Position numbers and translations under genes: made by a program. From the NCBI GenBank assembly GCA_964357925.1, contig CAYHMW010000002.1:23367-87366 (forward strand): 64,000 nucleotides of DNA. Direction: 5' to 3'. This DNA is from an uncultured Gammaproteobacteria bacterium (GTDB taxonomy: Bacteria; Patescibacteriota; Microgenomatia; UBA8517). Under the pieces are notes generated by a model. That model did not search any database, had not been told where the DNA came from, and saw nothing but the letters and a program-made list of their open reading frames with translations. Of this stretch, positions 34,372 through 48,839 are shown in pieces (the first letter of the stretch is position 1; each line of letters begins with the position of its first letter).

Positions 34372-34809
34372 ATGTTAATCGGTCAATACGAAACAACAAT
34401 TACAGAGGCCAAAAGGGTAGCAATACCCAAAAAATTTAGGTCCGAGCTCGGAAGTAATTTTATCATCGCACGTTGGTATGAAAAGTGTTTAGTTCTGGTA
34501 GCCAAGAATAACTGGACATCGCTCATGGAACGCGTCACAGGCACAAACGCACCTGTCATAGCACCAGTGAGACGCACAGACCGTTTTATTTTGGGTTCTG
34601 CCTTTGAGCTCACACCAGATAGTCAAGGTAGAGCAGTCCTGCCAACTTCCTTAGTGGAATATGCCGGACTCAAAGTAGAAGTTGTCTTTGTAGGGCTTGG
34701 CGATCGAGTTGAAATATGGGACAAAACACATTGGGAAAAAGAAGAAAGTGAATTGGCAAATATTGCCGGTGATTTAATCGAAAATCTGAACAATGGACAA
34801 AGGCCATGA
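34372..34809 (+). CDS. mraZ: transcriptional regulator MraZ
   Basis: MLIGQYETTITEAKRVAIPKKFR matches the MraZ N-terminus (MF.GE.....D.KGRV.IPAKFR). The two-repeat architecture and first position in the dcw cluster also fit. Confidence 0.85.
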   Translation: MLIGQYETTITEAKRVAIPKKFRSELGSNFIIARWYEKCLVLVAKNNWTSLMERVTGTNAPVIAPVRRTDRFILGSAFELTPDSQGRAVLPTSLVEYAGLKVEVVFVGLGDRVEIWDKTHWEKEESELANIAGDLIENLNNGQRP

Positions 34810-35695
34810 AAGCGTATTACTGCTCGAGGCAGTAGACGCTCTGCACATTAAGAATCAAGCTCTATATGTTGATGCCACATTAGGTGGCGGAGGACATACG
34901 ATCGAAATATTAAAGAGAGGTGGAAAAGTGATCGGAATTGAGGCAGACAAATCAATAATCGAGATTGCCAAAAATAACATAGAAGAAGCCCGCCCTGTCC
35001 CTCATCCTTTGGATGGGAGATTGCTTCATATTGTAAATGGCAACGCGAAAGACATTGATTTAATAGTCAAGAATTATACTCACGAACCAGTATTTGGTGT
35101 TCTATATGATCTTGGGGTCTCGAATTATCACTTTGGAAGTGAGGAAAGAGGTTTTTCATTTAAAAATCCAAAAGCGAGACTTGACATGAGACTAGACCCA
35201 GACACTCAATCAGTCACAGCTGCGGATTTGCTCAATTTGTTGAGAGAAGATCAACTATTTGAACTATTTAGGTACGCAATGGATTACAAGAGTGCCAAAA
35301 AAAGTGCATTTCTGATAGTTAATTTTAGGAAAACTAAGAAATTTGAAACCGTGGGTGATCTCTTGGACGCAATTGAGTCGTGGAAAAGTTCAAATACTAA
35401 AGTTCATCCCTCAACGAAAGCCTTTTTAGCACTAAGGATCGCAGTTAATCGAGAGCTTGATAACGCTGAGGAATCAATCAATAAAGCGGTGCATTTACTT
35501 GAAAAAAGTGGAAGGTTGAGTGTTATCACGTTTCATTCAACAGAAGACAGATTAGTTAAAAACATTTTTAAAGCTTTGGCAGAGAGTCACAAGGTTAAAA
35601 TCATTACAAAAAAGCCAATTACACCAAGTGCAGATGAGATTGAAAGGAATATTAAAAGTAGAAGCGCGAAATTAAGAGTTATTGAAAAATTATGA
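34793..35695 (+). CDS. rsmH: 16S rRNA (cytosine1402-N4)-methyltransferase RsmH (MraW)
   Basis: HESVLLLEAVDAL...YVDATLGGGGHT motif. Positioned after mraZ. Confidence 0.9.
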   Translation: MDKGHESVLLLEAVDALHIKNQALYVDATLGGGGHTIEILKRGGKVIGIEADKSIIEIAKNNIEEARPVPHPLDGRLLHIVNGNAKDIDLIVKNYTHEPVFGVLYDLGVSNYHFGSEERGFSFKNPKARLDMRLDPDTQSVTAADLLNLLREDQLFELFRYAMDYKSAKKSAFLIVNFRKTKKFETVGDLLDAIESWKSSNTKVHPSTKAFLALRIAVNRELDNAEESINKAVHLLEKSGRLSVITFHSTEDRLVKNIFKALAESHKVKIITKKPITPSADEIERNIKSRSAKLRVIEKL

Positions 35696-35973
35696 AAAGA
35701 AAAATTATATTACCAGTTATAATAGGCATATTTATTTTTGCCAACGTTTTTATGACAATCATCGCGGGGGCTGAGGGCACGAAGCTTGGGGACATTGAAA
35801 AGAAGCTTGCTACTCTTAAGGAAGACAAAAGGAAATCAGGGATAGAACTGGTCGAAGCGAGTTCTCTCAAGAATATTAAAGCGGGAGTAAACGAGCTGGG
35901 TTTTGCCGAACCAACACGAATAGTATATTTGTTAGAAGAAGGATCACTCGCTAAACTTCCTGACAGTTTCTAA
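35692..35973 (+). CDS. ftsL: cell division protein FtsL-like (single TM plus coiled coil)
   Basis: 93-aa protein with one TM helix and a short coiled-coil region. Position is between rsmH and ftsI. Confidence 0.55.
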   Translation: MKRKIILPVIIGIFIFANVFMTIIAGAEGTKLGDIEKKLATLKEDKRKSGIELVEASSLKNIKAGVNELGFAEPTRIVYLLEEGSLAKLPDSF

Positions 35974-35974
35974 T

Positions 35975-37693
35975 ATGCATGTCAGATTCAAGGTAATCTT
36001 TATCATCTTCATTTTACTGACCATTAGCGTTATTTCTCGGCTCTTCTATTGGCAAGTTCTGGAAGGAGGTAGAATCGCTGCCCTTGCACGTGCTCAACAA
36101 ACTGGTGGTCAAAGATTAGAGGCTCATAGGGGCAATATCTTAGATAAAAGCGGCAGTTGGTTGGCTGCCAGCGGAGATAGTTGGCTTCTATACGCATCTA
36201 TTCCAGATTTGGAAAATGGTGCTGGTATGATAGCAAAACTTCTCGCCCCTCTCTTTATCGATTTGGAATCAGAAACTGCAAAAGAGGATCTCCTTAAGGA
36301 AACTCTAAGATTAGAAAATAACATCAATCAACCTAAAGTTGTCTGGGTCCCATTAAAAAAACGAATCGACGATGAAAAAAGACGAGAAATAGAAGCACTT
36401 GGCATCAAGGGATTAGGTTTTGAGACAGAGGAGGCAAGAGTATACCCCGAAGGTAGTAGCTCTGCCCATCTCCTGGGATTTGTTGGCAAGGACGAAGACG
36501 GCAATGACAAAGGTTATTTCGGTCTCGAAGGCTTTTACGATTTGACTTTAAAAGCTAGAACTGGCTATCAAAGTACGACCGCCAATGCACTTGGCTCTCC
36601 GCTAGTATTTGGCAAAAAGAAACGCATAGATGCTGTGGGAGGAGTGGACTTGATAACGCACATAGACAAAGCTATTCAATTAACAGTTGAAGAAAAACTT
36701 GAAGAAGCCCTCGTTCGCTACGGCGCAAAGTCAGGCACAGTTATTATCATGAACCCACACACAGGTGGAGTATTGGCAATGGCTTCTTCGCCCAACTACG
36801 ACCAAAAAACATATTACGATTTTGGCGACGATCTATTTAGAAATCCAAGCATTAGTGATAGTTTCGAACCAGGCTCGGTATTTAAGCCCATTGTTATGGC
36901 AGCGGCTTTTGATGCAGGCGTCGTTAAACCAGACACAGTATGCGATATTTGCGATCGCTTCTTCAAAATAGACAAATATACAATTGGCACTTGGGATGGA
37001 AAGTATTATCCAAATTCCACAATGATCGATGTCATCAAACATTCGGATAATGTTGGAATGGTTTTTGCCGGACAAAAATTGGGCATCGAAAAATTTAGGA
37101 AATACATCTCAGACTTTGGCTTTGGACAAATCACAGGGATAGATCTTGAAGGAGAAAGTTCTCCTAAATTAAGAGGAAATGGGGAGTGGAGCATGGTGGA
37201 TCTTGCTACTTCCACATTTGGCCAAGGTATTGCAGTCACACCGATTCAATTAATTAAAGCGATATCAATTATTGGTAACGGTGGTGTTAGTGTCACACCA
37301 CAGGTAGTTGATAAAGTAAAGCTAGGTAGTTGGGAGGAGGATGTTGCACCGGAATTAGGCGACAGAGTGATAAGTGAGAAGGCTGCAAGAGAAATAACAG
37401 AAATAATGGTTTTGGCTGTTAAAGAAGGTGAAGCCAAATGGGCAGTTCCTAAAGGTTTCAAAATCGCAGGCAAAACAGGTACAGCACAAATTCCGGTCCT
37501 AGGACACTATGACGAGGAAAAAACAATCGCTTCGTTTGTAGGTTATGCTCCTGCCGACAACCCAAAATTCACCATGCTTGTGACTCTTCGGGAACCAGAA
37601 AGTTCAACCTGGGCAAGTGAGACCGCAGCCCCGCTCTGGTTCGATATCGCCCTGGATATTTTCCCATACTTAGGCGTAGAACCTGAAAAATAA
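35975..37693 (+). CDS. ftsI: class B penicillin-binding protein, division transpeptidase FtsI
   Basis: SxxK (SVFKP), SxN (HSDN) and KTG (KTGTA) motifs. N-terminal TM anchor. Confidence 0.9.
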   Translation: MHVRFKVIFIIFILLTISVISRLFYWQVLEGGRIAALARAQQTGGQRLEAHRGNILDKSGSWLAASGDSWLLYASIPDLENGAGMIAKLLAPLFIDLESETAKEDLLKETLRLENNINQPKVVWVPLKKRIDDEKRREIEALGIKGLGFETEEARVYPEGSSSAHLLGFVGKDEDGNDKGYFGLEGFYDLTLKARTGYQSTTANALGSPLVFGKKKRIDAVGGVDLITHIDKAIQLTVEEKLEEALVRYGAKSGTVIIMNPHTGGVLAMASSPNYDQKTYYDFGDDLFRNPSISDSFEPGSVFKPIVMAAAFDAGVVKPDTVCDICDRFFKIDKYTIGTWDGKYYPNSTMIDVIKHSDNVGMVFAGQKLGIEKFRKYISDFGFGQITGIDLEGESSPKLRGNGEWSMVDLATSTFGQGIAVTPIQLIKAISIIGNGGVSVTPQVVDKVKLGSWEEDVAPELGDRVISEKAAREITEIMVLAVKEGEAKWAVPKGFKIAGKTGTAQIPVLGHYDEEKTIASFVGYAPADNPKFTMLVTLREPESSTWASETAAPLWFDIALDIFPYLGVEPEK

Positions 37694-37720
37694 GTACATG
37701 TTTGCTATAATCCAAAGTTC

Positions 37721-38473
37721 ATGAAAGATGTCTCAGCCGTAGTCCTCGCGGCAGGAAAAGGAAGTCGACTAAAAGGGAACAAACCTAAAGTTCTCAAAAT
37801 TCTAGGTGGACAACCAATTATTATTCGAATACTGAAACTGCTCGACAAGCTTAAAATTCAAAATCGAATTCTGGTTCTCGGGCACAGATCCAACACAATT
37901 CTAGACAAACTCTTAAAATCTAATTACAAAGAAAATATCTTAATTCAGAAAGAGCCCCAAGGAACGGCCCACTCACTTCAATTTGTTATTAGGCTAATAA
38001 GTACAAAAGAAGTTCTCGTACTTTATGGAGATGATTCAGGACTTTATAGACCACAAACCATTAAGAATTTTGTTAAATACCATATAAATTCAGGAAACAA
38101 AGCTACCTTCATGGTTTCAAAAGTTAATCAGAAAACAGATATAGGCGGAATACTTCTAGATAAAAAAGGATATGTCATGACAGTTGTCACCCGAAGCCAG
38201 ATGGAAGAACACGATATTAATCAAATACGTAACCTCTGTGGAGCTTTTTGTTTCAATTCGCAATGGATTTCCAAAAACATATCAAATATACCAAAAAGTG
38301 AAATTAGTGGTGAGTATCCGTTGCCAGGCATAATCAAAATAGCAAATTCTCAGGAAGTAAAAATCGGCAGCTATTTATTGCCGGATCAAAATGAATGGAA
38401 CAGTCTGAATACTAATAAAGAATTAATAGAAGCTAGAAAAAAGATGAAAAAAAAGCTGCAAATTAAAAAATGA
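37721..38473 (+). CDS. sugar-1-phosphate nucleotidyltransferase, GlmU N-terminal (uridylyltransferase) domain-like; no LbH acetyltransferase domain
   Basis: AVVLAAGKGSRLK...PKVL, PQGTAHSL (cf. GlmU EQLGTGHA). Confidence 0.6.
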   Translation: MKDVSAVVLAAGKGSRLKGNKPKVLKILGGQPIIIRILKLLDKLKIQNRILVLGHRSNTILDKLLKSNYKENILIQKEPQGTAHSLQFVIRLISTKEVLVLYGDDSGLYRPQTIKNFVKYHINSGNKATFMVSKVNQKTDIGGILLDKKGYVMTVVTRSQMEEHDINQIRNLCGAFCFNSQWISKNISNIPKSEISGEYPLPGIIKIANSQEVKIGSYLLPDQNEWNSLNTNKELIEARKKMKKKLQIKK

Positions 38474-39453
38474 CTGAAAGAAAAATAGACTTCCATATTC
38501 ACTATAACCCAGAAATTGATTCAACTGCGTACGAGGCGATTGATCGTGCAAGAGAAAGAGGTATTGTGGCGATGGCTTTGATGGGTAAACAACTTGTCTC
38601 CCCCCATTTCAATGATTTTCAAGAATACGGGAAAGAAATAGGAGTCGACGTTTTTTCAGGGATGGAGTTGGTCACTCAAGACGGAAACATTGGCATGAAC
38701 ATCATCGCAATTGGCTTTGATCCCCTCGCTCCTTCTATCGAAAAATGGCGTTCTGATCTTGAAAACAAGGATATTATGGCACAAAGATATAAGGCTCAAT
38801 ACGAATATCTTTTGAATTCTGGTTACATTTTTCCAGAAACAGAAGAAGCAAACAACATACTATCGACACTGCTTGACGGCTCAAATGACCAGGGAGCGAT
38901 TGAATACTGCAGAATGATTTCTGACTATCTGCCTAACCACCAGCATATCGAAGTTGATAAATTAAGCGAACCAGAAACATGGAAAGAAACTGTTGAGAAG
39001 TATAGCGATATTCCAGAGTATTCACACATGTTGGAGGCTAAGTTTTTATATAAAAAACATTTTGCATTTGGCAAACCAGGGAACTTTATCAGGTTTACTG
39101 ATACAAATGAAGCTATTAATCGAATTCATAGTGCAGGAGGAGTTGCTCTATATTCGCCAGAAGGAAGTTTTGAACAAGAAAAATGGGATCGACTTATAGA
39201 ACTCCAAATCGACGGAATAATGGCATGGCATGGTGGAAAATTAGGAATGTCTGGCCACTCAAAAGATGTTCCACTAAGCGTCTTAAAAAATGCACTTCGA
39301 TCTGATCTCCTTATTCTTGGAGGGAGTGACTATCAAGCTAAAGACTGGCAAGCAGGTGTTGGAAACGGAGAAATGTTCATTAGTTCTAGGCGACTTGGAG
39401 ACTTGAGAAAATATCAAAAGCAAATGGATCGAAGAATCTTTAACAATACTTGA
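38470..39453 (+). CDS. PHP-domain-like metal-dependent phosphoesterase (tentative)
   Basis: IDFHIHYNPEIDS...A..RGIVAMAL N-terminal His motif and a C-terminal GGSDYQ (GSDAH-like) motif. Confidence 0.35.
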   Translation: MTERKIDFHIHYNPEIDSTAYEAIDRARERGIVAMALMGKQLVSPHFNDFQEYGKEIGVDVFSGMELVTQDGNIGMNIIAIGFDPLAPSIEKWRSDLENKDIMAQRYKAQYEYLLNSGYIFPETEEANNILSTLLDGSNDQGAIEYCRMISDYLPNHQHIEVDKLSEPETWKETVEKYSDIPEYSHMLEAKFLYKKHFAFGKPGNFIRFTDTNEAINRIHSAGGVALYSPEGSFEQEKWDRLIELQIDGIMAWHGGKLGMSGHSKDVPLSVLKNALRSDLLILGGSDYQAKDWQAGVGNGEMFISSRRLGDLRKYQKQMDRRIFNNT

Positions 39454-39463
39454 GCTAAAAATA

Positions 39464-40585
39464 GTGAGAAAAATTAAAAAAGGTCTTCACATTGGAATTG
39501 CACTAATCGCAAATCTCATTTACGGTATGCCCGGGAAGCGGTTAAAGTTAATCGGTGTAACCGGAACAGACGGCAAAACAACAACTGTCTTGATGATTTA
39601 CCACATTTTAAAAAATGCGGGCTATAAAGTCGGGTATATTTCAACAATCGGCTATGACGTAGGCGGTAAACGCTTTGATCAGGGTTTACATGTGACTACA
39701 CCATCTAGCTTAGTGCTGCAAAAATTGTTGAGAGCTGCAGTCAACAATAAGCTCACTCATCTAGTACTTGAGTCAAGCTCTCACGGCCTCGATCAAAACA
39801 GGTTATTGGGATGTCACTTTGAAGTGTCTGTGATTACAAACATAACCCCCGAACACCTGGATTATCACAAGACTTACGATAATTACTTAAACACAAAGGC
39901 AAAACTGCTGAGTCTTTCAAAAGTAAAGTTAATAAACAAAGGTGATCGAAGCTATAAGGAATTGATAAAAAAATTTCCAGATAGTATTGCTTTTGAATTT
40001 GAGGACTTCGGTTTTGCAGAAAAATATAATAACGAGAACGCAGCGGCAGCCGCCAAAGTCTGCAAGGAAATAGGTATAAAGGAGAAGGAAATTAAAAAAT
40101 ATCTTAAATCTTTCGAGTTTCCTGCTGGGAGATATGATGTTGTACAAAAGAAACCTTTTACAGTTATAGTTGACTTTGCCCACACACCAAACGGTTTAAT
40201 AAATTTTCTAAGTTCACTTCCTAAGTCCAGTGGAAAACTAATTCACATCTTCGGATGCGCAGGTGAAAGAGATAAATACAAACGTCCGGAAATGGGAAAA
40301 AATTCAGCGAGTTTCGCTGACATTATTATATTAACCGCCGAAGATCCCAGGTCAGAAAAGGTTGAAGACATTAATGGCTCAATTAAAAAAGGAATACCTA
40401 AGTCATTCAAAGGCAAGTTGATAGAAGTTCATGATCGTGGAAAGGCAATTGCCACAGGGATAAAGTTGGCAAAAGTAGGTGATAGAGTTGTCATAACAGG
40501 CAAAGGACCGGAAAAATCTAACAACATTGGAGGAGTTGAATACCCTTGGTCTGATTTAGAAGAAGTTAAAAAATATTTAGAATGA
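39464..40585 (+). CDS. murE: Mur ligase, MurE-like (UDP-MurNAc-tripeptide synthetase), N-terminally short
   Basis: ATP-binding loop LIGVTGTDGKTTT appears about 30 aa from the start. Mur ligase middle and C-terminal regions are present. Position is after ftsI. Confidence 0.6.
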   Translation: MRKIKKGLHIGIALIANLIYGMPGKRLKLIGVTGTDGKTTTVLMIYHILKNAGYKVGYISTIGYDVGGKRFDQGLHVTTPSSLVLQKLLRAAVNNKLTHLVLESSSHGLDQNRLLGCHFEVSVITNITPEHLDYHKTYDNYLNTKAKLLSLSKVKLINKGDRSYKELIKKFPDSIAFEFEDFGFAEKYNNENAAAAAKVCKEIGIKEKEIKKYLKSFEFPAGRYDVVQKKPFTVIVDFAHTPNGLINFLSSLPKSSGKLIHIFGCAGERDKYKRPEMGKNSASFADIIILTAEDPRSEKVEDINGSIKKGIPKSFKGKLIEVHDRGKAIATGIKLAKVGDRVVITGKGPEKSNNIGGVEYPWSDLEEVKKYLE

Positions 40586-41355
40586 ATATCAAATCACTCA
40601 ACAAAGAATGCGTTAAAATGGCCAATCGCTATGCAAAACTAAATATTCACAATAAAAAAATACCAACTCCATATTACATAAACAGCATTCAAGGACATTT
40701 CTCAGAGATCTTTAATATGGTTGGTATTCCATCGGAAAAAATTATTGAGATTTGGCGAATCTATAAAAGTAATAAATTTCCATACGGTAGGTACAGAGGT
40801 AAGGGAACACCGGAAGAAATTGAAGACGCGGTAATTAAAGTTTCAACTGCAGTTGGGCTACCACTCGATAATAGTAGCATTGAAGTAATACTAAATTTTA
40901 TGAAGCTTTATGGGCTTGGCGTTGATTGTTCAGGATATGTTTACAACCTCTTAAGTAGCGCCTTTAAAAAAATAGAAGGCAGTGATCAACAGCTGAAAGC
41001 CAGCCTTAACTGGATGGCAAAAAGCAAAAGAGATGTTTGGAATGCTGGAGCGTTCGCTTTTGCTGGCAAAGCTTCAGTATTAGTTACGCCAGAAAGACTT
41101 CAACCGCTTGATCTAATTCTCTTAAAGGATAAAGACCAAAAGTATGTTCATGTAGCTTTAGTAATAAAACACAATGGTAAATTATTAATAACCCAGTCAC
41201 AAATATGTATGAATCCAAGTGGTGTTAGATCTGATAATGCTGTGGCGCTACAGCCAGAGCCTTTATTTGATTATCATCCTGAAATAGGTCCGAGCTGGGA
41301 GGATCTCTATAAGAAAGGTAGACTTGAATTTAGAAGATTAAAAATACTTGCATGA
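40582..41355 (+). CDS. NlpC/P60-family (permuted papain-fold) cysteine peptidase/amidase-like protein, no signal peptide
   Basis: GLGVDCSGYVYNLL resembles the catalytic Cys motif G-x-DCSG-x-V. Downstream PLDLILLKDKDQKYVHVALVIKHNGKLL resembles the GDL.FF...HVGIY His region. There is no N-terminal hydrophobic segment. Confidence 0.45.
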   Translation: MNIKSLNKECVKMANRYAKLNIHNKKIPTPYYINSIQGHFSEIFNMVGIPSEKIIEIWRIYKSNKFPYGRYRGKGTPEEIEDAVIKVSTAVGLPLDNSSIEVILNFMKLYGLGVDCSGYVYNLLSSAFKKIEGSDQQLKASLNWMAKSKRDVWNAGAFAFAGKASVLVTPERLQPLDLILLKDKDQKYVHVALVIKHNGKLLITQSQICMNPSGVRSDNAVALQPEPLFDYHPEIGPSWEDLYKKGRLEFRRLKILA

Positions 41356-42482
41356 AAAATATTAAAACACTTATTTACCATCCCGCCAAAAGGTATCTTG
41401 CTCATTACTACTTAAAAATTTTGAAACTTTTAGGCTGTGAAGTAATTGGAATAACAGGAAGCGCTGGCAAAACAACTACTAAGGAAATGATTGCATCTGT
41501 ACTCAAAACTAAATACAAAGTTGCCTACTCATTAGCCAATATCGACCCTGTTTATAACATTCCCAATACAATTCTCAAAACACCTCTATGGACCAAAAAA
41601 TTAGTTCTAGAAATGGGGGTAGAATTTCCGAGGGAAATGAACTTTTACATATGGCTTGCGAACCCAGACGTTGGAGTTTTGACAAACGTTACTTGGACTC
41701 ACACTCAGTTTTTTAAAAATATCGAGGGTGTGGCTGCTGAAAAAAGTAAACTTATCAAATCGCTCCCAAAAAATGGACTAGCAATTTTAAACAAAGACGA
41801 CGCGAGAGTCGCAAAGCTTGCACACAAAACAAATGCAAAGGTAATTTATTTTGGATCGGGCGAGAAAAACAAAGTACACGCAACTGATATTAAGTTTACA
41901 AAAAATCTTACTACCTCTTTCATATTACATGTTGGTAAAGAAAAAACTGAAGTTACCCTTGCAGTTCTTGGTAGGCATTTTGTTGATCTTGCTTTGGCAG
42001 CAGCTGCAGTCGGCAACAACAGTAAAATTCCACTTCAAAAAATTAGAGAAGGTTTGGAAAATTTCAAAAGTGAACCCCACAGAATCCACCCACACGTCTT
42101 AAAAAATGGAACTTTAATTTTAGACGACACTTACAACGCCAATCCAGAAGCAGTTCTTCGGGCAATAGATGTATTAAAAGAGGTTGGCAAAAGCAAAAAA
42201 ACAATTTTAGTTTTAGGAGAAATGAAAGAGCTCGGCAGTTACGCAAAATCCGGACATATCCTCGTTGGCAATTACGCCAAAAAGCAAAAAATTGCTAAAC
42301 TACTTAGCCTGGGGAAAGAAACACTGTATACAGTTGATGCTTTCGGAAAAGGTGGAAAATATTTTAAAAGTAAAAGAGAAATAGTAAAAGAGCTTAGAAG
42401 CTTAAAAACTCCCCACACAATACTAATAAAAGGTTCAAGATCAATGGGCATGGAAGAAATTGTAAAGACACTAATATCATAA
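41352..42482 (+). CDS. murF: Mur ligase, MurF-like (UDP-MurNAc-pentapeptide synthetase), N-terminally short
   Basis: VIGITGSAGKTTTKEM P-loop and a Mur ligase C-domain. Position is before ddl-mraY. Confidence 0.65.
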   Translation: MKNIKTLIYHPAKRYLAHYYLKILKLLGCEVIGITGSAGKTTTKEMIASVLKTKYKVAYSLANIDPVYNIPNTILKTPLWTKKLVLEMGVEFPREMNFYIWLANPDVGVLTNVTWTHTQFFKNIEGVAAEKSKLIKSLPKNGLAILNKDDARVAKLAHKTNAKVIYFGSGEKNKVHATDIKFTKNLTTSFILHVGKEKTEVTLAVLGRHFVDLALAAAAVGNNSKIPLQKIREGLENFKSEPHRIHPHVLKNGTLILDDTYNANPEAVLRAIDVLKEVGKSKKTILVLGEMKELGSYAKSGHILVGNYAKKQKIAKLLSLGKETLYTVDAFGKGGKYFKSKREIVKELRSLKTPHTILIKGSRSMGMEEIVKTLIS

Positions 42483-42486
42483 ATTC

Positions 42487-43518
42487 ATGAGCAAAAGGCT
42501 TAAAATTGCAGTTTTAATGGGCGGACGTACACCCGAATACGAAATATCTATAATTTCTGGTCAAAGTGTAACTAAAGCACTTGAAGAGAAGGGCCACATT
42601 GTGCTGCCTATTATTGTTTCCAGAGACGGTCAAATCTGGAAGTCGATCGACCCTGACGTTTTGTACAAATTACCAAACCCACTTCTTCTAAAAGGTACAA
42701 ATAAAGAAATTATTTCTACAAAAACAAAATCCCTCGAAAGCCCCACCAGTATTAAGCACCAAGGTGTAGATGTAATTTTCCCCGCAATGCACGGCCCTTT
42801 TGGCGAAGACGGAACAATTCAAGGACTTCTAGATGTACTAGATATTCCGTATATTGGCTCCGGTGTTCTGGCAAGCGCTATTGGAATGAACAAATATGTC
42901 TTTAGAAAAATATTAAATGGGAGTGGTATTCAATTTCCCAAATTTATAGCACTCAAAAAAAACGATGACCATCAAAACTTTAAAAAAATCTTAGGAAATA
43001 TGCCATATTTTGTAAAGCCAAATTCTCAAGGTTCATCTGTCGGCGCGTCTTTAGTTACAAAAGCCTCAGACCTTAAGGCGGCAATTTCCAAAGCGCTCCA
43101 ATATGGCGACACAGTTTTAATTGATGAGTATATTAAAGGCACCGAACTGACATGTGGTGTTATTGGTAATGATGAATTAGAAGCACTCCCAGTTGTCGAG
43201 ATCGTCACAGAAAGCGACTTTTTCGACTACAACGCCAAATATACCACGAGCACCACGCAAGAAATTGTCCCTGCGAGAATTTCGCCGGAACTAACAAAAA
43301 AAGTACAAGAATTAGCGAAAAGAGTGTACTTGGAAATTGGAGCAAGAGGCTTTGCTCGAGTAGACTTTATTTTACGAAATAATGAATTGTATGTACTGGA
43401 AATTAACACTATTCCGGGGCTTACACCCATGTCTTTGATGCCGAAAGCTGCGAAAGTTGCAGGCTATTCATACAGTGACTTAGTTGAAAAAGTTGTAGAA
43501 CTTGCATTAACCAAGTAG
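42487..43518 (+). CDS. ddl: D-alanine--D-alanine ligase
   Basis: KIAVLMGGRTPEYEISIISG N-terminus, HGPFGEDGTIQGLLDVLDIPYIGSGVLASAIGMNK, ATP-grasp C-terminus. Confidence 0.9.
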   Translation: MSKRLKIAVLMGGRTPEYEISIISGQSVTKALEEKGHIVLPIIVSRDGQIWKSIDPDVLYKLPNPLLLKGTNKEIISTKTKSLESPTSIKHQGVDVIFPAMHGPFGEDGTIQGLLDVLDIPYIGSGVLASAIGMNKYVFRKILNGSGIQFPKFIALKKNDDHQNFKKILGNMPYFVKPNSQGSSVGASLVTKASDLKAAISKALQYGDTVLIDEYIKGTELTCGVIGNDELEALPVVEIVTESDFFDYNAKYTTSTTQEIVPARISPELTKKVQELAKRVYLEIGARGFARVDFILRNNELYVLEINTIPGLTPMSLMPKAAKVAGYSYSDLVEKVVELALTK

Positions 43519-43536
43519 GCTATAATTATTAAAGAG

Positions 43537-44595
43537 ATGAACTTCTACAATACAGCACCTCTAGCACTTGGATTGATAGTATTCTCCTTTCTTATCACAA
43601 GCGCTCTAGTCATCCCATTTATCGACCTCCTTTACAAGTTCAAAATGCTGAGACGCAAAGAAGGAGACTTCAGGGGCAAAAAAGAATCTCTCTTCGATAA
43701 GCTTCATGACAAAAAAGCAGGAACTCCAATTGGCGGAGGCATTTTGCTGATAACTGTAGTCAGCGTAATGTTTCCATTTTTGTTTTCCTTTATCTCCAAT
43801 ATGGGTGTTTTCATCCACACCTCTTTTAAACTTAATTACGAGCTTTTGGTTATCTTCTTCACCTTTCTTGGTTTTGGAGCCATCGGTCTCCTGGACGATC
43901 TTGTTAAAATCTTCGGTAAACCAAAACCAAATATTTACGGCTCTGTATTCGGATTATCAAAAACCCAGAAGTTTGGACTTCAGTGGATTTTAGCTTTTGC
44001 CATCTCTTTTATGCTTTACTTTTTACTTGGAATTCAAATTCTTCACATACCAATTCTTGAAATAACAATCAATCTTGGTCCTCTATACTTACTTTTTTCT
44101 GCATTCATAATTGTTTTCTTTGCAAATGCCTTTAACATCACAGATGGACTCGATGGTCTATCCTCCGGCCTTCTCATGATTTATCTTTTTTCCTATGTCA
44201 TTATCGCAGCCAGCAACTTAGATACACCGCTTTTTATCTTTATTTCTCTCTGGCTTGGCTCAATAATTGCCTTCTTATATTTTAACGTTTGGCCAGCAAG
44301 AATATTTTTAGGCGATGCAGGAGCACTAAGCTTTGGTGCAATGATCGCTGTTATTGGATTAGTTATTGGGAACGTAACAACTCTTTTTATAATTGGAGGT
44401 TTATTTGTAATTGAGGCACTTTCTTCGTTGATTCAAATACTTGGACGAAAATTCCTGAAACGTAAAATTTTTCCCATTGCACCAATTCACCACACTTTTC
44501 TTTGGTTAGGTTGGGAAGAACCAAAAATTGTCATGCGAGCTTGGTTGGCAGGATTAATGCTAGCAATTTTCGGACTCTGGCTTGCAACTATCTAA
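43537..44595 (+). CDS. mraY: phospho-N-acetylmuramoyl-pentapeptide transferase MraY
   Basis: DDLVKIFG and NAFNITDGLDGLSSG motifs; 10 TM helices. Confidence 0.9.
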   Translation: MNFYNTAPLALGLIVFSFLITSALVIPFIDLLYKFKMLRRKEGDFRGKKESLFDKLHDKKAGTPIGGGILLITVVSVMFPFLFSFISNMGVFIHTSFKLNYELLVIFFTFLGFGAIGLLDDLVKIFGKPKPNIYGSVFGLSKTQKFGLQWILAFAISFMLYFLLGIQILHIPILEITINLGPLYLLFSAFIIVFFANAFNITDGLDGLSSGLLMIYLFSYVIIAASNLDTPLFIFISLWLGSIIAFLYFNVWPARIFLGDAGALSFGAMIAVIGLVIGNVTTLFIIGGLFVIEALSSLIQILGRKFLKRKIFPIAPIHHTFLWLGWEEPKIVMRAWLAGLMLAIFGLWLATI

Positions 44596-44598
44596 CTA

Positions 44599-45756
44599 AT
44601 GTCTAGATTATTTTTCTTAAGGCAAAAAAGGGCAAAACACAAAAGTCGCACGATTTCGCACCCCGGAAAGCGTCAAAATACAAGCAGAATACTCTTCGCT
44701 CTAACATTACTATTGACGGGGCTTGGCCTTATAGCAGTGTTTGATGTTAGTTCTCCTCAAGCGATAAGACTTTTCGGTGACCCATATTACTTTGCAAAAC
44801 AACAACTGATGTGGGCAGGGATTGGTTTGGGTGCTTTTGTTGGCGGAAGCGTTATGTCATACAAATTGTTAAGTAAGTACGCACTAGTTATTTTTGGCGT
44901 CTCACTATTATTACTATTGATTGTTTTGATACCAGGTATTGGCTCAAATGTCTTAGGTGCTAGAAGGTGGATAAGGTTAGGACCAGTTGGCATTCAGCCA
45001 TCAGAAGTAGCTAAGTTGGCAGTCATCATAATCATTGCAAAATTTGCAGAGGCAAAATATCCAGTTTGGTACGGTGTTTCAGTACTTGGTATTGTCTCGA
45101 CCCTCATAATGCTTCAACCAGATCTGGGGACAACAATAGTGGTTGCCTCAATTGGCCTGGTCCAGCTATTCGCGGCGGGCTACACGCTTGTAAATCTCGG
45201 TGCCATGGCAGCAGCAGGAACGGGCTTAGCGGGATTACTTGTTATATTTTCTGACTACAGAAGACAACGTCTTATGACGTTTATTAATAACCTCTATGAC
45301 CCATTAAGCCTAGATCTTACGGAAGCATATGGAGCTGGTTATCACATCAGACAGATACTGATCGCAATAGGTTCTGGTGGAATTCTGGGACTGGGAGTGG
45401 GCCAATCTCGCCAAAAACACCTTTTTCTTCCAGAAACAGCCACAGATTCAGTCTTTGCAATTATTGCTGAAGAGTTCGGATTTATTGGAGCAGCAACGCT
45501 AATCATACTGCTTATGTATTTTACACTTGTAGTTGTCAGGGTAGCCATGCACGCTCCTGATAAATTCAGCGCGATCTTGGCAATTGGCATAGCAGGTTGG
45601 ATTGGTGGGCAAACTATACTCAATCTTTCAGCAATGCTCGCTCTCGCGCCGCTTACAGGGATTCCTCTACCATTTTTCAGTTATGGTGGCTCCAGTTTGA
45701 CAATGACACTTTTTTCGGTTGGAATACTTGTAAATATTGGAAATTCAAAAAAATGA
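44599..45756 (+). CDS. ftsW: SEDS-family peptidoglycan glycosyltransferase FtsW
   Basis: SEDS motifs (QPSEVAKLAVII, PETATDSVFAIIAEEFGFIG). Position is between mraY and murG. Confidence 0.85.
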   Translation: MSRLFFLRQKRAKHKSRTISHPGKRQNTSRILFALTLLLTGLGLIAVFDVSSPQAIRLFGDPYYFAKQQLMWAGIGLGAFVGGSVMSYKLLSKYALVIFGVSLLLLLIVLIPGIGSNVLGARRWIRLGPVGIQPSEVAKLAVIIIIAKFAEAKYPVWYGVSVLGIVSTLIMLQPDLGTTIVVASIGLVQLFAAGYTLVNLGAMAAAGTGLAGLLVIFSDYRRQRLMTFINNLYDPLSLDLTEAYGAGYHIRQILIAIGSGGILGLGVGQSRQKHLFLPETATDSVFAIIAEEFGFIGAATLIILLMYFTLVVVRVAMHAPDKFSAILAIGIAGWIGGQTILNLSAMLALAPLTGIPLPFFSYGGSSLTMTLFSVGILVNIGNSKK

Positions 45757-46859
45757 GCAATAAAATTTTACTTACTGGTGGCCACGCAGGTTCGACAGCC
45801 CTCGCAACAATTAAGGCAATTCAGAAAGCCAGGAGAGCTACCCAAGAAATCTATTGGGTCGGTGCGGCTTCTGCGCACACGGGTATAAACACTGGCAAGA
45901 CTTTTGAAGAGCGAGAATTTGGCAAACACGACATAAATTATCTTAAAATTCATGCTGGCAAAATCCCAAGAAAGATTACTTTCTATGCCCTTATAAATTC
46001 CTTGTTACTGCCAGTGGGCTTCTTTGAGGCCTTGTGGCTAATCGCAAAGATTCGTCCAAATGTAATTGTCAGTTTCGGCGGCTACGCCGCATTCCCCGTA
46101 GTAGTTATTGGCTATCTAATGCAAATTCCCATAGTAATTCAAGAGCAGACAGTGGTAGCTGGGCTAACTAACAGGATAACTGCCCGCCTTGCAAGTAAAA
46201 TTGCAATTGGCAGGCCACAGAGTATGGATTTTTTCCCCAAATCCAAAACCGTACTGACTGGCCTTCCGCTTTCCGAGGACATAACGAGTTTGGGACCAAA
46301 GCCAAAAATTGGGAAACCACCAGTGCTTCTGGTAACAGGTGGCAGCAGAGGTGCAAGGCCAATAAATCAAGTAATAGGCAAGGCACTTACTGAAATCCTT
46401 AAAAAATTCAAAGTTATTCATCTGACTGGGGAGATTGATTTCTCAAGAGTCGAAGGTTTCAAAGATACACTTAGCGAGGATCTTGCGCGGAGATACGAAG
46501 TTCACGCACATGTTGCTCCTGATGAAATGAAAGAACTATATAAAAAATCTGACATCATAATATCGAGAGCTGGTGCAAACTCAGCTGCTGAAATACTCTC
46601 AGTTGGCCGACCAGCCATAATCATTCCGCTCCCAATTACATGGTTTGATGAGCAAAGGAAAAACGCACAACTTGCCGAAAATGCCGGTATCGCAGAAGTC
46701 ATTGAACAAAAGGACTTAAATAAACATACACTTTTGACCACCCTCAACAAAATTCTAAAAAATTGGGATGCTATGACCAAAAATTATGATCGATCCTGGG
46801 CAAAGCTCGACAAAAATGCGGCTAACAATGTGGCGGAAATAGTCCTCAGTTACTTATAG
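45753..46859 (+). CDS. murG: UDP-GlcNAc:undecaprenyl-PP-MurNAc-pentapeptide GlcNAc transferase MurG (GT28)
   Basis: Start at the internal ATG 45753 (MSNKILLTGGHAGS), forming an ATGA overlap with ftsW. The ORF track's 45597 start would overlap ftsW by 160 nt. Confidence 0.85.
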   Translation: MSNKILLTGGHAGSTALATIKAIQKARRATQEIYWVGAASAHTGINTGKTFEEREFGKHDINYLKIHAGKIPRKITFYALINSLLLPVGFFEALWLIAKIRPNVIVSFGGYAAFPVVVIGYLMQIPIVIQEQTVVAGLTNRITARLASKIAIGRPQSMDFFPKSKTVLTGLPLSEDITSLGPKPKIGKPPVLLVTGGSRGARPINQVIGKALTEILKKFKVIHLTGEIDFSRVEGFKDTLSEDLARRYEVHAHVAPDEMKELYKKSDIIISRAGANSAAEILSVGRPAIIIPLPITWFDEQRKNAQLAENAGIAEVIEQKDLNKHTLLTTLNKILKNWDAMTKNYDRSWAKLDKNAANNVAEIVLSYL

Positions 46860-47509
46860 TGGTAAAAGCAATAAATCTAGCTCTTGCCTTAATACTAATA
46901 GCATTCTCAATATTAGGTTTACCCAGAATCATCCGAATCAAGCACATAACATGTATAAGTGATAAATCACCATGTCGTGGCGAGACAGTTGAAAAAATTA
47001 GTAAGCACATTGGTATTCCAATTCAAGAGGCTCTAACCAGAGTTCAAAAAGAACTTAATAATAATTCTTTGATTAAGAGTTCAGAGGTAAAATACGTGTT
47101 TCCAAATTCAATTTCAGCCTCAATAGATTACAAAAAACCAGCATTGAGACTCAAATACATAGGTTTTTCTAACACAATTGTCGTTGATGAATCGGGAAGT
47201 ATTATCAGAACTGAAAACGTTGACAATCTACCAACATTGCTAATCGAAGGTAACGCAGGTGAACTTTCAAAATCTATTCCTCTAATTCTAAATTTAAACA
47301 AATATTATGGTTTCAACTATTTCACATTAACAAAAGATGTGTTAAGTACAAAAACAAAAGACGATATCGCTCTAGTAATACCGACAGATAATGATATTGA
47401 CATAACGCTTGGGTCAATAAATTTGACTCTTTCCCAGTTGAATAGGCAATTACAAGGAATTAGAATTGAAGAGATTGACTTTAGGTACAAAAACCCCATT
47501 GTAAGATAG
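46859..47509 (+). CDS. ftsQ: cell division protein FtsQ/DivIB-like (TM plus POTRA)
   Basis: N-terminal TM helix then a POTRA-like region. Position is between murG and ftsA. Confidence 0.55.
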   Translation: MVKAINLALALILIAFSILGLPRIIRIKHITCISDKSPCRGETVEKISKHIGIPIQEALTRVQKELNNNSLIKSSEVKYVFPNSISASIDYKKPALRLKYIGFSNTIVVDESGSIIRTENVDNLPTLLIEGNAGELSKSIPLILNLNKYYGFNYFTLTKDVLSTKTKDDIALVIPTDNDIDITLGSINLTLSQLNRQLQGIRIEEIDFRYKNPIVR

Positions 47510-48780
47510 TGAAAATGACTAAAAGCAAAATTATAGCCGCCATTGATATAGGTTCCTCGAAGGTGACATCGCTCCTCGCGCAAGCTGTAGTCGAACAGGC
47601 CACCTTAGAAACGGTCATAAATATTATGGGAGTGTCGACTGTGCCTTCAAAAGGCATAAAAAAGGGTCAGATTGTCGACATTGAAGAAGCAGTTGAAGCA
47701 ACAATAATATCTGTTGAAGGAGCAGAGCGGATGGCTGGCTACAATATTGACAAAGCGTTTGTCTCGGTGGGAGGGGGGCATATCCAATCGCAAAACAGCA
47801 AAGGTGTAGTCGCTGTATCGGATCCAAATGGTGAAGTTTCAGGTGAAGATGTTGGTCGTGTAATAGAATCGGCTAGAGCAGTTTCACTCCCTGCCTCAAG
47901 AGAAATCATCCATGTGATTCCAAGAGAATACATTGTCGATGGTGAAGCAGGCGTGCGTGACCCAGTTGGGATGACCGGAGTGCGTCTTGAAGTTGAGACA
48001 CATCTTGTGACAGCGAGTTCACCAGCCCTGAAAAACCTCACAAAGACTATAAAGGAAGTTGGCGTTGATATCGAAGAAACAGTTTTCTCAGCCCTCGCCG
48101 CAAGCCACTCGACACTCACAGGGACCGAGAAGGAATTGGGCTGTGTCCTCATTGATATTGGAGCTGGAACCACCTCAATTGCTGCACATATCGATAACGC
48201 ACTTGCCTATTCAGGCTCGATACCCATAGGTGCAAGAAATGTAACAAATGATTTAGCAATCGGCCTTCGGGTAACACTCGATACTGCAGAGAAAATAAAA
48301 ATTGCACTAAATAATCCTCCTAAAAGAGGTGATGATGGAAAGCAAATGGACTTGACTGAATTCGGCGCAAAAGAACACAAAAAGATTTCGACTAGAACAT
48401 TAACCGAAGGAATAATAAGACCACGCTTGAATGAAATATTTTCAATGGTCAAGTTAGATTTGGAGCGAGCAGGACTCATTCACAGAGTCCCTTCAGGCGC
48501 AATTCTCTGTGGTGGTGGAGCATTAACTTCAGGCATTGAGGAATCCGCAAGAAGAACGCTTGGTTTACCAGTTAGAGTTGCAAAACCCGGTGGAGTCGGC
48601 GGACTTATTGACGATACTGGCACACCTGAGTACGCAGCCGCCGTTGGACTAATCCTATATGGCGCTGGCTCTGGCGGAAAGTTTATAGAAAGTAAGCAAT
48701 TTATGCCAACAAAGCTCAGTCTTCCTGGAAGGGGCGCATTTGGTAACGCAGTCCGAATGATCAAAGATTTACTGCCGTAA
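47509..48780 (+). CDS. ftsA: cell division protein FtsA
   Basis: Actin-fold N-terminus IIAAIDIGSSKVTSLLA. Position is before ftsZ. Confidence 0.9.
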   Translation: MKMTKSKIIAAIDIGSSKVTSLLAQAVVEQATLETVINIMGVSTVPSKGIKKGQIVDIEEAVEATIISVEGAERMAGYNIDKAFVSVGGGHIQSQNSKGVVAVSDPNGEVSGEDVGRVIESARAVSLPASREIIHVIPREYIVDGEAGVRDPVGMTGVRLEVETHLVTASSPALKNLTKTIKEVGVDIEETVFSALAASHSTLTGTEKELGCVLIDIGAGTTSIAAHIDNALAYSGSIPIGARNVTNDLAIGLRVTLDTAEKIKIALNNPPKRGDDGKQMDLTEFGAKEHKKISTRTLTEGIIRPRLNEIFSMVKLDLERAGLIHRVPSGAILCGGGALTSGIEESARRTLGLPVRVAKPGGVGGLIDDTGTPEYAAAVGLILYGAGSGGKFIESKQFMPTKLSLPGRGAFGNAVRMIKDLLP

Positions 48781-48839
48781 CTTTTGACTTTCTGCCCTCA
48801 TCTGCTACACTGCGCTTAAGTTTTTTTTAGAGAGATTAT

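Follow-up and report, generated by a model that had tools for sequence, protein, structure and literature searches.

The operon described here is a division and cell wall (dcw) gene cluster in a 64-kb stretch of DNA (referred to below as the window; contig CAYHMW010000002.1) from a genome of the Patescibacteria, or candidate phyla radiation (CPR), recovered from Hainich groundwater (well H41, 0.1-μm fraction). Set among the familiar genes are three others, which encode a GlmU-N-like uridylyltransferase (NTPt), a protein with the PHP fold (PHPl) and an NlpC/P60-like protein (P60l). It is likely that this is a genuine CPR dcw operon, in which three lineage-specific cytoplasmic enzymes have become fixed and are co-expressed in peptidoglycan precursor metabolism, alongside a MurE and a MurF that are functional. 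The three enzymes are probably parts of precursor synthesis, rather than chance insertions, because relatives keep them beside cell-wall genes. An initial annotation of the window had already recognized these three proteins for what they are, and profile and fold comparisons agree with it; its view that they are coupled into the operon also stood. The weight that it placed on the lack of murD, murC and murB did not, and it had missed that MurE and MurF are both without their first domain.

The genes form a single operon on the + strand (window positions 34372–50006), in which Pfam and NCBIfam models confirm the order that had been read from the sequence: mraZ–rsmH–ftsL–ftsI–[NTPt–PHPl]–murE–[P60l]–murF–ddl–mraY–ftsW–murG–ftsQ–ftsA–ftsZ. 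Apart from the inserts, this is the collinear, one-strand order of the canonical dcw cluster. NTPt (37721–38473; 250 amino acids) begins 27 nt after ftsI and overlaps PHPl (38470–39453; 327 amino acids), which is followed after 10 nt by murE (39464–40585; 373 amino acids); P60l (40582–41355; 257 amino acids) overlaps murE at its start and murF (41352–42482; 376 amino acids) at its end. Each of these three overlaps (38470/38473, 40582/40585 and 41352/41355) is 4 nt long, as had been noted, and the other intergenic gaps in the operon are all 59 nt or less. Tight coupling of the three inserts into the operon is supported by these overlaps and short gaps. Three replicate groundwater samples (L050–L052; L-numbers denote loci or contigs that bear homologues and were compared with the window) each yielded the string NTPt–PHPl–murE–P60l–murF in an independent assembly, which excludes an assembly artefact.

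The relatives of NTPt and PHPl were reached from homologues of PHPl and then from homologues of NTPt, with homology verified by phmmer. This gave 12 independent contexts (the window, L053, L054, L055, L057, L059, L061 and L063–L067), and NTPt and PHPl adjoin in all 12. Peptidoglycan genes are neighbours of the pair in 11 of these contexts, the twelfth being on a phage-like contig; the two genes are co-directional in 11, mostly overlapping by a few bases, and convergent in L059. The synteny of the inserts spans many divergent Patescibacteria, at 33–46% protein identity. Sporadic insertion, a possibility that the initial annotation had entertained, is thus contradicted by the shared gene order of related clusters. 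Genomic context gives good support to its suggestion that the inserts act in the synthesis or remodelling of precursors, because they are conserved beside peptidoglycan genes.

The pair directly follows ftsI in the window and in four other loci, in which it is followed by mraY (L057), by an alpha/beta hydrolase gene and mraY (L053), by ddl and, further along, mraY (L054), or by an M28/M42-like peptidase gene and mraY (L063). The gene order in L066 is ftsI–murA–[NTPt–PHPl]–murF–alr–mraY, with murA overlapping NTPt, and L067 has murA, a YkuD gene and the pair beside NlpC/P60, murE and ftsI genes. The pair heads the operon [NTPt–PHPl]–murE–murC–murB–murD–murF in L061/62, stands between an M42-like gene and ddl (followed by a murF-like gene) in L064, and in L059 is represented by the order murF-like–C39-like–PHPl with NTPt convergent. 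In L065 the order is ftsI–(AmgK-like kinase)–x–murE–[NTPt–PHPl], with murF–ddl–mraY further along; the kinase (4288–5229, − strand) belongs to the APH family, and its best NCBIfam match is AmgK, an anomeric kinase for MurNAc and GlcNAc (E = 4e-20), with a score that falls well short of the cutoff for that family. Several other genes recur next to NTPt–PHPl or P60l in the dcw clusters of L053, L054, L063, L064 and L010, namely those of alpha/beta hydrolases, of M42/M28-like peptidases and, on the opposite strand, of a MurF-like ligase; they suggest further lineage-specific accessories for peptide processing. The phage-like contig (L055/56) carries terminase genes and other sugar-nucleotide genes: in L055 (737–10450) and L056, a terminase, GP3_package, SIS, a GHMP kinase, a second NTP_transferase, an epimerase and a split transketolase are found beside NTPt–PHPl. 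This module is possibly a viral auxiliary sugar-nucleotide set in a CPR-associated phage.

P60l has a wider distribution. Its family comprises 49 clusters, and those that are named are all from Patescibacteria (WWE3, Amesbacteria or “Patescibacteria group”). Among the 49 genome loci with a P60l homologue (the best with 46% identity to that of the window), 13 have the gene directly 5′ of mraY (−10 to +54 nt) and nine others have it next to murE, murF or mraY, i.e., in at least 22 of 49 it is linked to one of these genes; in L002, only a glutamate racemase gene separates it from a mur ligase gene. In L019 (6344–12364), murA, murB and P60l seem to be fragmented or truncated, perhaps by assembly frameshifts, and P60l is separated from murF by genes for a C39-like peptidase and a DUF5715 protein; a DUF5715 gene precedes murF in L065 too.

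NTPt has a Pfam NTP_transferase match of the GlmU-N type. Against the NCBIfam models of GlmU (430–488 positions), only the N-terminal region of about 240 positions is matched, with 145 bits where the cutoff is 450. The profile of the NTPt family finds the GlmU of Streptococcus pneumoniae in the Protein Data Bank (PDB) (4aaw, E = 2e-44), the next nucleotidyltransferase family being at 2e-18. The uridylyltransferase domain of GlmU is homologous over its whole length, and LAAGKGTRM, PKVL, Q76, GT(A), GDD and the equivalent of N227 are kept; invariant in the NTPt family are LAAGKGxR, K23, Q76, G81/T82, D104/D105 and N230. Very probably, to judge from these residues, NTPt still uses UTP. Two features set it apart from GlmU. 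One is that the C-terminal, left-handed beta-helix (LbH) acetyltransferase domain is absent: in the 250 amino acids of NTPt, there is no Hexapep match and no LbH domain. NTPt would therefore need a sugar 1-phosphate that is already N-acetylated. The other is in the sugar pocket. Glu154 and Asn169 of GlmU, which we take from GlmU structures to be ligands of the hydroxyls of N-acetylglucosamine (GlcNAc), align with T157 and L172 of NTPt. When 120 GlmU-like matches were compared, the 25 best-scoring clusters (P0062–P0086, which include the NTPt of the window) had T, S, R or Q (once F or D) at the Glu154 position and L or V (once M, A or F) followed by Cys–Gly at the Asn169 position, whereas Glu and Asn are kept in nearly all of the other 95, be they standalone or bifunctional. 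A further difference from GlmU is that the NTPt gene always has a PHP-fold partner gene. On this sequence evidence, NTPt is a distinct, neofunctionalised clade derived from GlmU, with a remodelled sugar pocket.

The family of PHPl comprises 12 clusters and has no Pfam domain. The structure of PHPl (an AF2 model with a pLDDT of 86) was compared by Foldseek and matches PHP enzymes of the TrpH/YciV type over the full length, helical insertion included (probability 1.0, TM 0.6–0.7); the top matches are BAD_1165 (3o0f, E = 4e-14), RNase AM of Vibrio cholerae (9etk) and the 3′,5′-pAp phosphatase Cv1693 (2yb1). In the profile alignment, the HxH motif (H9, H11), E66, H254 and D287 are kept and invariant, D7 is kept too, and seven acidic or histidine residues in all are invariant in the family. 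In contrast to the TrpH/YciV phosphoesterases, PHPl has lost or replaced five of the usual metal-ligand positions, namely the ligand Asp or His in the motifs SDG, DHD, HIVG, AHPG and DxH, so that the His/Asp/Glu ligand set of the trinuclear metal site is incomplete. An invariant Glu231 lies beside the lost histidine of AHPG. PHPl also differs from these enzymes in being without a Pfam PHP match, and in having cell-wall genes as its context, rather than genes of RNA or sulfur metabolism. No transmembrane segment was found by simple hydropathy analysis. PHPl is probably a reduced mono- or binuclear hydrolase that is still functional.

P60l matches the Pfam family NLPC_P60 (PF00877) below the gathering threshold (16.5 bits, cutoff 23; E = 0.008), and a precomputed match to PF00877 exists for a few of its homologues. 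It has the papain-like fold with a triad of Cys, His and a polar residue: Cys116, His190 and Gln205 (Gln, Glu or His in the family) align with the triad Cys68–His119–His131 of Spr/MepS. DCSG is kept in all homologues, and the invariant residues include GLGVDCSG, His190 and a YRGKG motif; there is also a family-specific, helical N-terminal domain of about 100 amino acids. Since simple hydropathy analysis found no signal peptide, lipobox, hydrophobic N-terminus or transmembrane segment, P60l should be cytoplasmic. This location, the N-terminal helical domain, the genetic coupling to mraY, murE and murF, and the score below the Pfam threshold distinguish it from the known NlpC/P60 endopeptidases (MepS/Spr, CwlO, LytE and the YkfC-like gamma-D-Glu-diamino-acid endopeptidases). 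The best inference is that P60l is a cytoplasmic stem-peptide hydrolase that serves to recycle, salvage or edit precursors.

The MurE and MurF of the window score above the cutoffs of their models (TIGR01085, 357.9 bits against 257.3; TIGR01143, 322.4 bits against 288.6) and have, like the canonical enzymes, the P-loop and the central and C-terminal domains, with the (D/E)xPR motif in MurE. Unlike the canonical enzymes, which have three domains, both are without the N-terminal Mur-ligase domain 1 (about 75–90 residues). MurE matches TIGR01085 only from profile position 89, its residue 13 aligning with residue 89 of Thermotoga maritima MurE, and MurF matches TIGR01143 from position 70, its residue 28 aligning with residue 99 of Escherichia coli MurF. 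Upstream extension of either open reading frame (ORF) is impossible. MurE is also without about 30 residues where the central domain ends, and its P-loop is at residue 31. Among the 150 best representatives of MurE at 50% identity, the P-loop is at residue 60 or before in 81 (27–56, apart from four 5′-truncated sequences) and at 99–152 in the 33 full-length forms; no intermediate position is seen. The form with the short N-terminus occurs in L001, L005, L015, L019, L045, L061 and L067; the mur operon of L061/62, otherwise complete, has no other MurE, and the short form is therefore presumably functional. As far as the alignments go, the loss of domain 1 is a lineage-wide trait in the case of MurE. 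In canonical MurE and MurF, as seen in the E. coli structures, domain 1 binds the UDP part of the substrate.

Other explanations for the short ligases were rejected. An assembly artefact or frameshift does not fit three independent assemblies and a bimodal P-loop position. A MurT/GatD system (a short Mur ligase with a Cys enzyme) does not fit ligases that are above the MurE and MurF cutoffs with negligible MurT matches, nor a P60l whose fold is that of NlpC/P60 and not of a glutamine amidotransferase. A link with archaeal pseudomurein was set aside too, the matches to pMur and PmurB being weak and far below those to the bacterial models. The dcw cluster of L001 (6274–12027) combines a full-length murE (a 543-amino-acid ORF) with a short-N-terminus murE (429 amino acids) and with a pair of P60l paralogues, of which one is on the other strand; this hints that the short ligase and P60l may be a functional unit distinct from canonical MurE.

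The absence of murD, murC and murB from the cluster, to which the initial annotation had drawn attention, is correct as an observation. A canonical dcw cluster has murD, murC and usually murB; here, a Pfam search of nearly all ORFs of at least 110 amino acids found none of murA, murB, murC and murD in the 64 kb, and phmmer, with the MurA, MurB, MurC and MurD of relatives as queries, found no match among the window ORFs down to a length of 60 amino acids. As a sign of an atypical cluster it says little, because relatives keep these genes nearby or in a separate operon. Thus, murB, murA, murD and murC are close by on the opposite strand in L005/L015, murC, murB and murD are in a separate mur operon in L061/62, and the murC, murD and murB genes are placed downstream in L023/L029; in the P60l loci, murA, murB, murC or murD is frequently within 10 kb. 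The dcw clusters of L053 and L057 have no Mur ligase genes at all, yet keep mraY, murG and ftsW, so the ligase genes are evidently located elsewhere in those genomes. The composition of the dcw cluster is fluid in these bacteria, the weight of the missing murC, murD and murB is limited, and a gene that is missing from the cluster need not be missing from the genome. Most probably, murA, murB, murC and murD are elsewhere in the genome of the window organism.

How might the three enzymes work together? Most parsimoniously, NTPt and PHPl are read as an obligate module of two genes that stands where the pathway begins and supplies a UDP-N-acetyl-amino-sugar. NTPt would be a UTP:sugar-1-phosphate uridylyltransferase that makes UDP-GlcNAc, UDP-N-acetylmuramic acid (UDP-MurNAc) or both, and its product would feed MurA and MurG, or the Mur ligases. 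Between these, supply of UDP-GlcNAc is favoured, tentatively, because of the GlmU ancestry of NTPt and the tight linkage of the module to murA (L066, L067) and murB (L061/62). PHPl would perform a coupled hydrolysis, most likely taking a non-anomeric phosphate off an amino-sugar phosphate, as MupP, GmhB or KdsC do; alternatively, it may remove pyrophosphate or a nucleotide by-product. Such coupling is frequent in known nucleotide-sugar routes: GmhB with HddC, and KdsC with KdsB, are couples of a phosphatase and a nucleotidyltransferase. A sugar-phosphate phosphatase is similarly coupled with a nucleotidyltransferase in the case of MupP and MurU (PMC5371407). P60l, alongside MurE, MurF and MraY, would have the stem peptide as its target, cutting within it or trimming it, either in muropeptides that are recycled or scavenged or in nucleotide precursors, and MurE and MurF would act in their functional, clade-wide form without domain 1.

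Several points weigh against this proposal. The substrates of all three families, and the order of the reactions, are deduced, the former from context and fold. With the equivalents of Glu154 and Asn169 lost, plain GlcNAc-1-phosphate may not be the substrate of NTPt. About half of the metal-ligand motif positions of the PHP fold are gone, and PHPl could be non-catalytic or have a chemistry other than that of a phosphatase. The anomeric kinase is rarely linked: the AmgK-like gene is found in one context of the 12 and is not in the window. The phage-like contig, with the pair among other sugar-nucleotide genes, fits a more general role in glycans. Finally, about half of the closest homologues of P60l are among unrelated genes (HD, PMT_2, CTP synthase and DNA methylase).

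The strongest of the other explanations, possible although doubtful, is a bypass by salvage of MurNAc, in which NTPt is the analogue of MurU and PHPl that of MupP and, with an AmgK-like kinase encoded elsewhere, host-derived MurNAc is converted to UDP-MurNAc, replacing or supplementing MurA and MurB in the window organism. An anabolic MurNAc route of this kind exists in Pseudomonas, in which the phosphatase MupP, the anomeric kinase AmgK and the uridylyltransferase MurU bypass the de novo synthesis of UDP-MurNAc; as with NTPt–PHPl, a phosphatase and a small standalone sugar-1-phosphate uridylyltransferase feed peptidoglycan synthesis (PMC5371407). The residues at the Glu154 and Asn169 positions are smaller or hydrophobic throughout the NTPt clade, which is compatible with a bulkier, 3-O-lactyl sugar; an AmgK-like kinase gene is next to the module in L065; and neither murA nor murB is in the window. 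Furthermore, L019 and L003 have murA–murB just before murE (in L019, directly after ftsI), in the place where the window has NTPt–PHPl. A simple in-situ swap of the one pair for the other, which these two loci would suggest, is weakened by murA in L066 and L067 and murB in L061/62. Those same neighbours, murA directly before and overlapping NTPt in L066 and adjacent in L067, and murB within the operon of L061/62 (i.e., murA or murB beside the module in three contexts), also speak against salvage itself. However, de novo and salvage routes to UDP-MurNAc coexist in Pseudomonas, and co-occurrence of murA or murB with NTPt–PHPl is therefore compatible with salvage. What separates the module further from the Pseudomonas route is descent. 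NTPt derives from GlmU and is not an orthologue of MurU: no MurU entry is among its 25 PDB matches (single-sequence search, E ≤ 1e-3), and no MurU family is among the best 25 of its 35 NCBIfam matches, the closest relatives all being GlmU. MupP is a phosphatase of the HAD family, to which the PHP-fold PHPl is unrelated, and the kinase gene is usually unlinked to the module.

Salvage could also extend to peptides. In the strict form of this idea, which is improbable, there are no MurC and MurD, pre-formed MurNAc-peptides or stem peptides from the host are trimmed by P60l, NTPt activates MurNAc-1-phosphate or MurNAc-peptide-1-phosphate, and MurE and MurF, without their domain 1, complete the pentapeptide. 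It would account for the lack of murC and murD in the 64 kb, for ligases without the domain that in canonical enzymes binds the UDP part of the substrate, for a peptidoglycan-endopeptidase fold in a protein that is yet predicted to be cytoplasmic, and for the remodelled pocket of NTPt. However, the window is only 64 kb of the genome, murC and murD are near the short MurE, P60l or NTPt–PHPl in relatives (L005, L015, L010 and L061/62), and the clusters of L053 and L057 keep mraY, murG and ftsW with their ligase genes evidently elsewhere. A looser form, in which wall precursors come by an undescribed route largely from scavenged host fragments, with NTPt–PHPl reactivating MurNAc or MurNAc-peptides to the UDP level, P60l trimming the stem peptide and MurE and MurF rebuilding it, is less hard to credit, although still rather unlikely. 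We think it about as improbable as the strict form that NTPt–PHPl provides some other UDP-sugar for use in glycoproteins or surface glycans and is merely co-located with dcw genes. A sugar pocket unlike that of GlmU, the company of SIS, GHMP kinase, second NTP_transferase and epimerase genes on the phage-like contig, and a large glycosyltransferase cluster at least 8 kb upstream in the window would fit such a role; but no bacterial glycosyltransferase cluster encloses any of the 12 contexts, and in 11 the pair directly adjoins ftsI, murA, Mur ligase genes, ddl or mraY, the stop codon of one gene often overlapping the start codon of the next. That the inserts are sporadic, hitch-hiking genes with no functional link to the operon is very improbable indeed. 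The GC content over positions 38001–42000 (PHPl–murE–P60l–murF) is 0.36–0.37, compared with 0.40–0.42 in the flanking dcw genes, i.e., four to five points lower, and there is an extended −10-like match just 5′ of NTPt (TGCTATAAT, 37683–37711), which could be an internal promoter; both would fit such an insertion. However, promoter-like matches in a promoter and terminator scan were overall not above chance, and sporadic insertion is contradicted by synteny across many divergent Patescibacteria. The preferred reading thus remains that of three enzymes fixed in a dcw operon for precursor metabolism.

The remaining genes of the operon, all on the + strand, are as follows. Upstream of the inserts are mraZ (34372–34809; Pfam MraZ), rsmH (34793–35695; Pfam Methyltransf_5), an ftsL-like gene (35692–35973; an ORF of 93 amino acids without a Pfam match and with one N-terminal transmembrane-like segment) and ftsI (35975–37693; Pfam PBP_dimer and Transpeptidase). 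Downstream of murF are ddl (42487–43518), mraY (43537–44595), ftsW (44599–45756), murG (from 45597 or 45753 to 46859), an ftsQ-like gene (46859–47509), ftsA (47509–48780) and ftsZ (48840–50006), with Pfam and NCBIfam matches as the evidence. A second extended −10-like match (GCTATAAT, at about 43520–43536), just 5′ of mraY, could also be an internal promoter. Beyond the operon, a second SEDS gene (FtsW/RodA family) directly follows ileS at 54037–55092. The neighbourhood DUF4012–recO–tRNA synthetase–mraZ is common to the window, L063 and L066. Upstream of the operon is a large surface-glycan cluster (4235–30246) with many glycosyltransferases of families GT1, GT2 and GT4 and three PMT_2 proteins, which also holds a Wzy_C polymerase/ligase, a flippase, a ManC-like nucleotidyltransferase, Bac_transf and DUF4012.

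Each of the proteins belongs to a known superfamily, and their setting is a known pathway. The obligate pairing of NTPt and PHPl with a remodelled GlmU pocket, the mraY-coupled family of cytoplasmic NlpC/P60 proteins, and MurE and MurF without domain 1 appear to be undescribed; a search of the literature on the three families in CPR bacteria found nothing relevant. The Patescibacteria are a very large, mostly uncultivated and host-dependent radiation that still keeps peptidoglycan synthesis, and the locus bears on how their reduced metabolism obtains its amino-sugar and peptide precursors. If precursors were indeed rebuilt from scavenged fragments, MurA and MurB, and possibly MurC and MurD, would be dispensable in some members. 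Thus, the cluster should not be seen as merely “missing” murC, murD and murB: it holds three conserved families, two of them without a Pfam model, that are tied genetically to mraY, mur genes and ftsI and, together with the MurE and MurF that have lost domain 1, are clonable candidates for missing or alternative steps in the supply and recycling of precursors.

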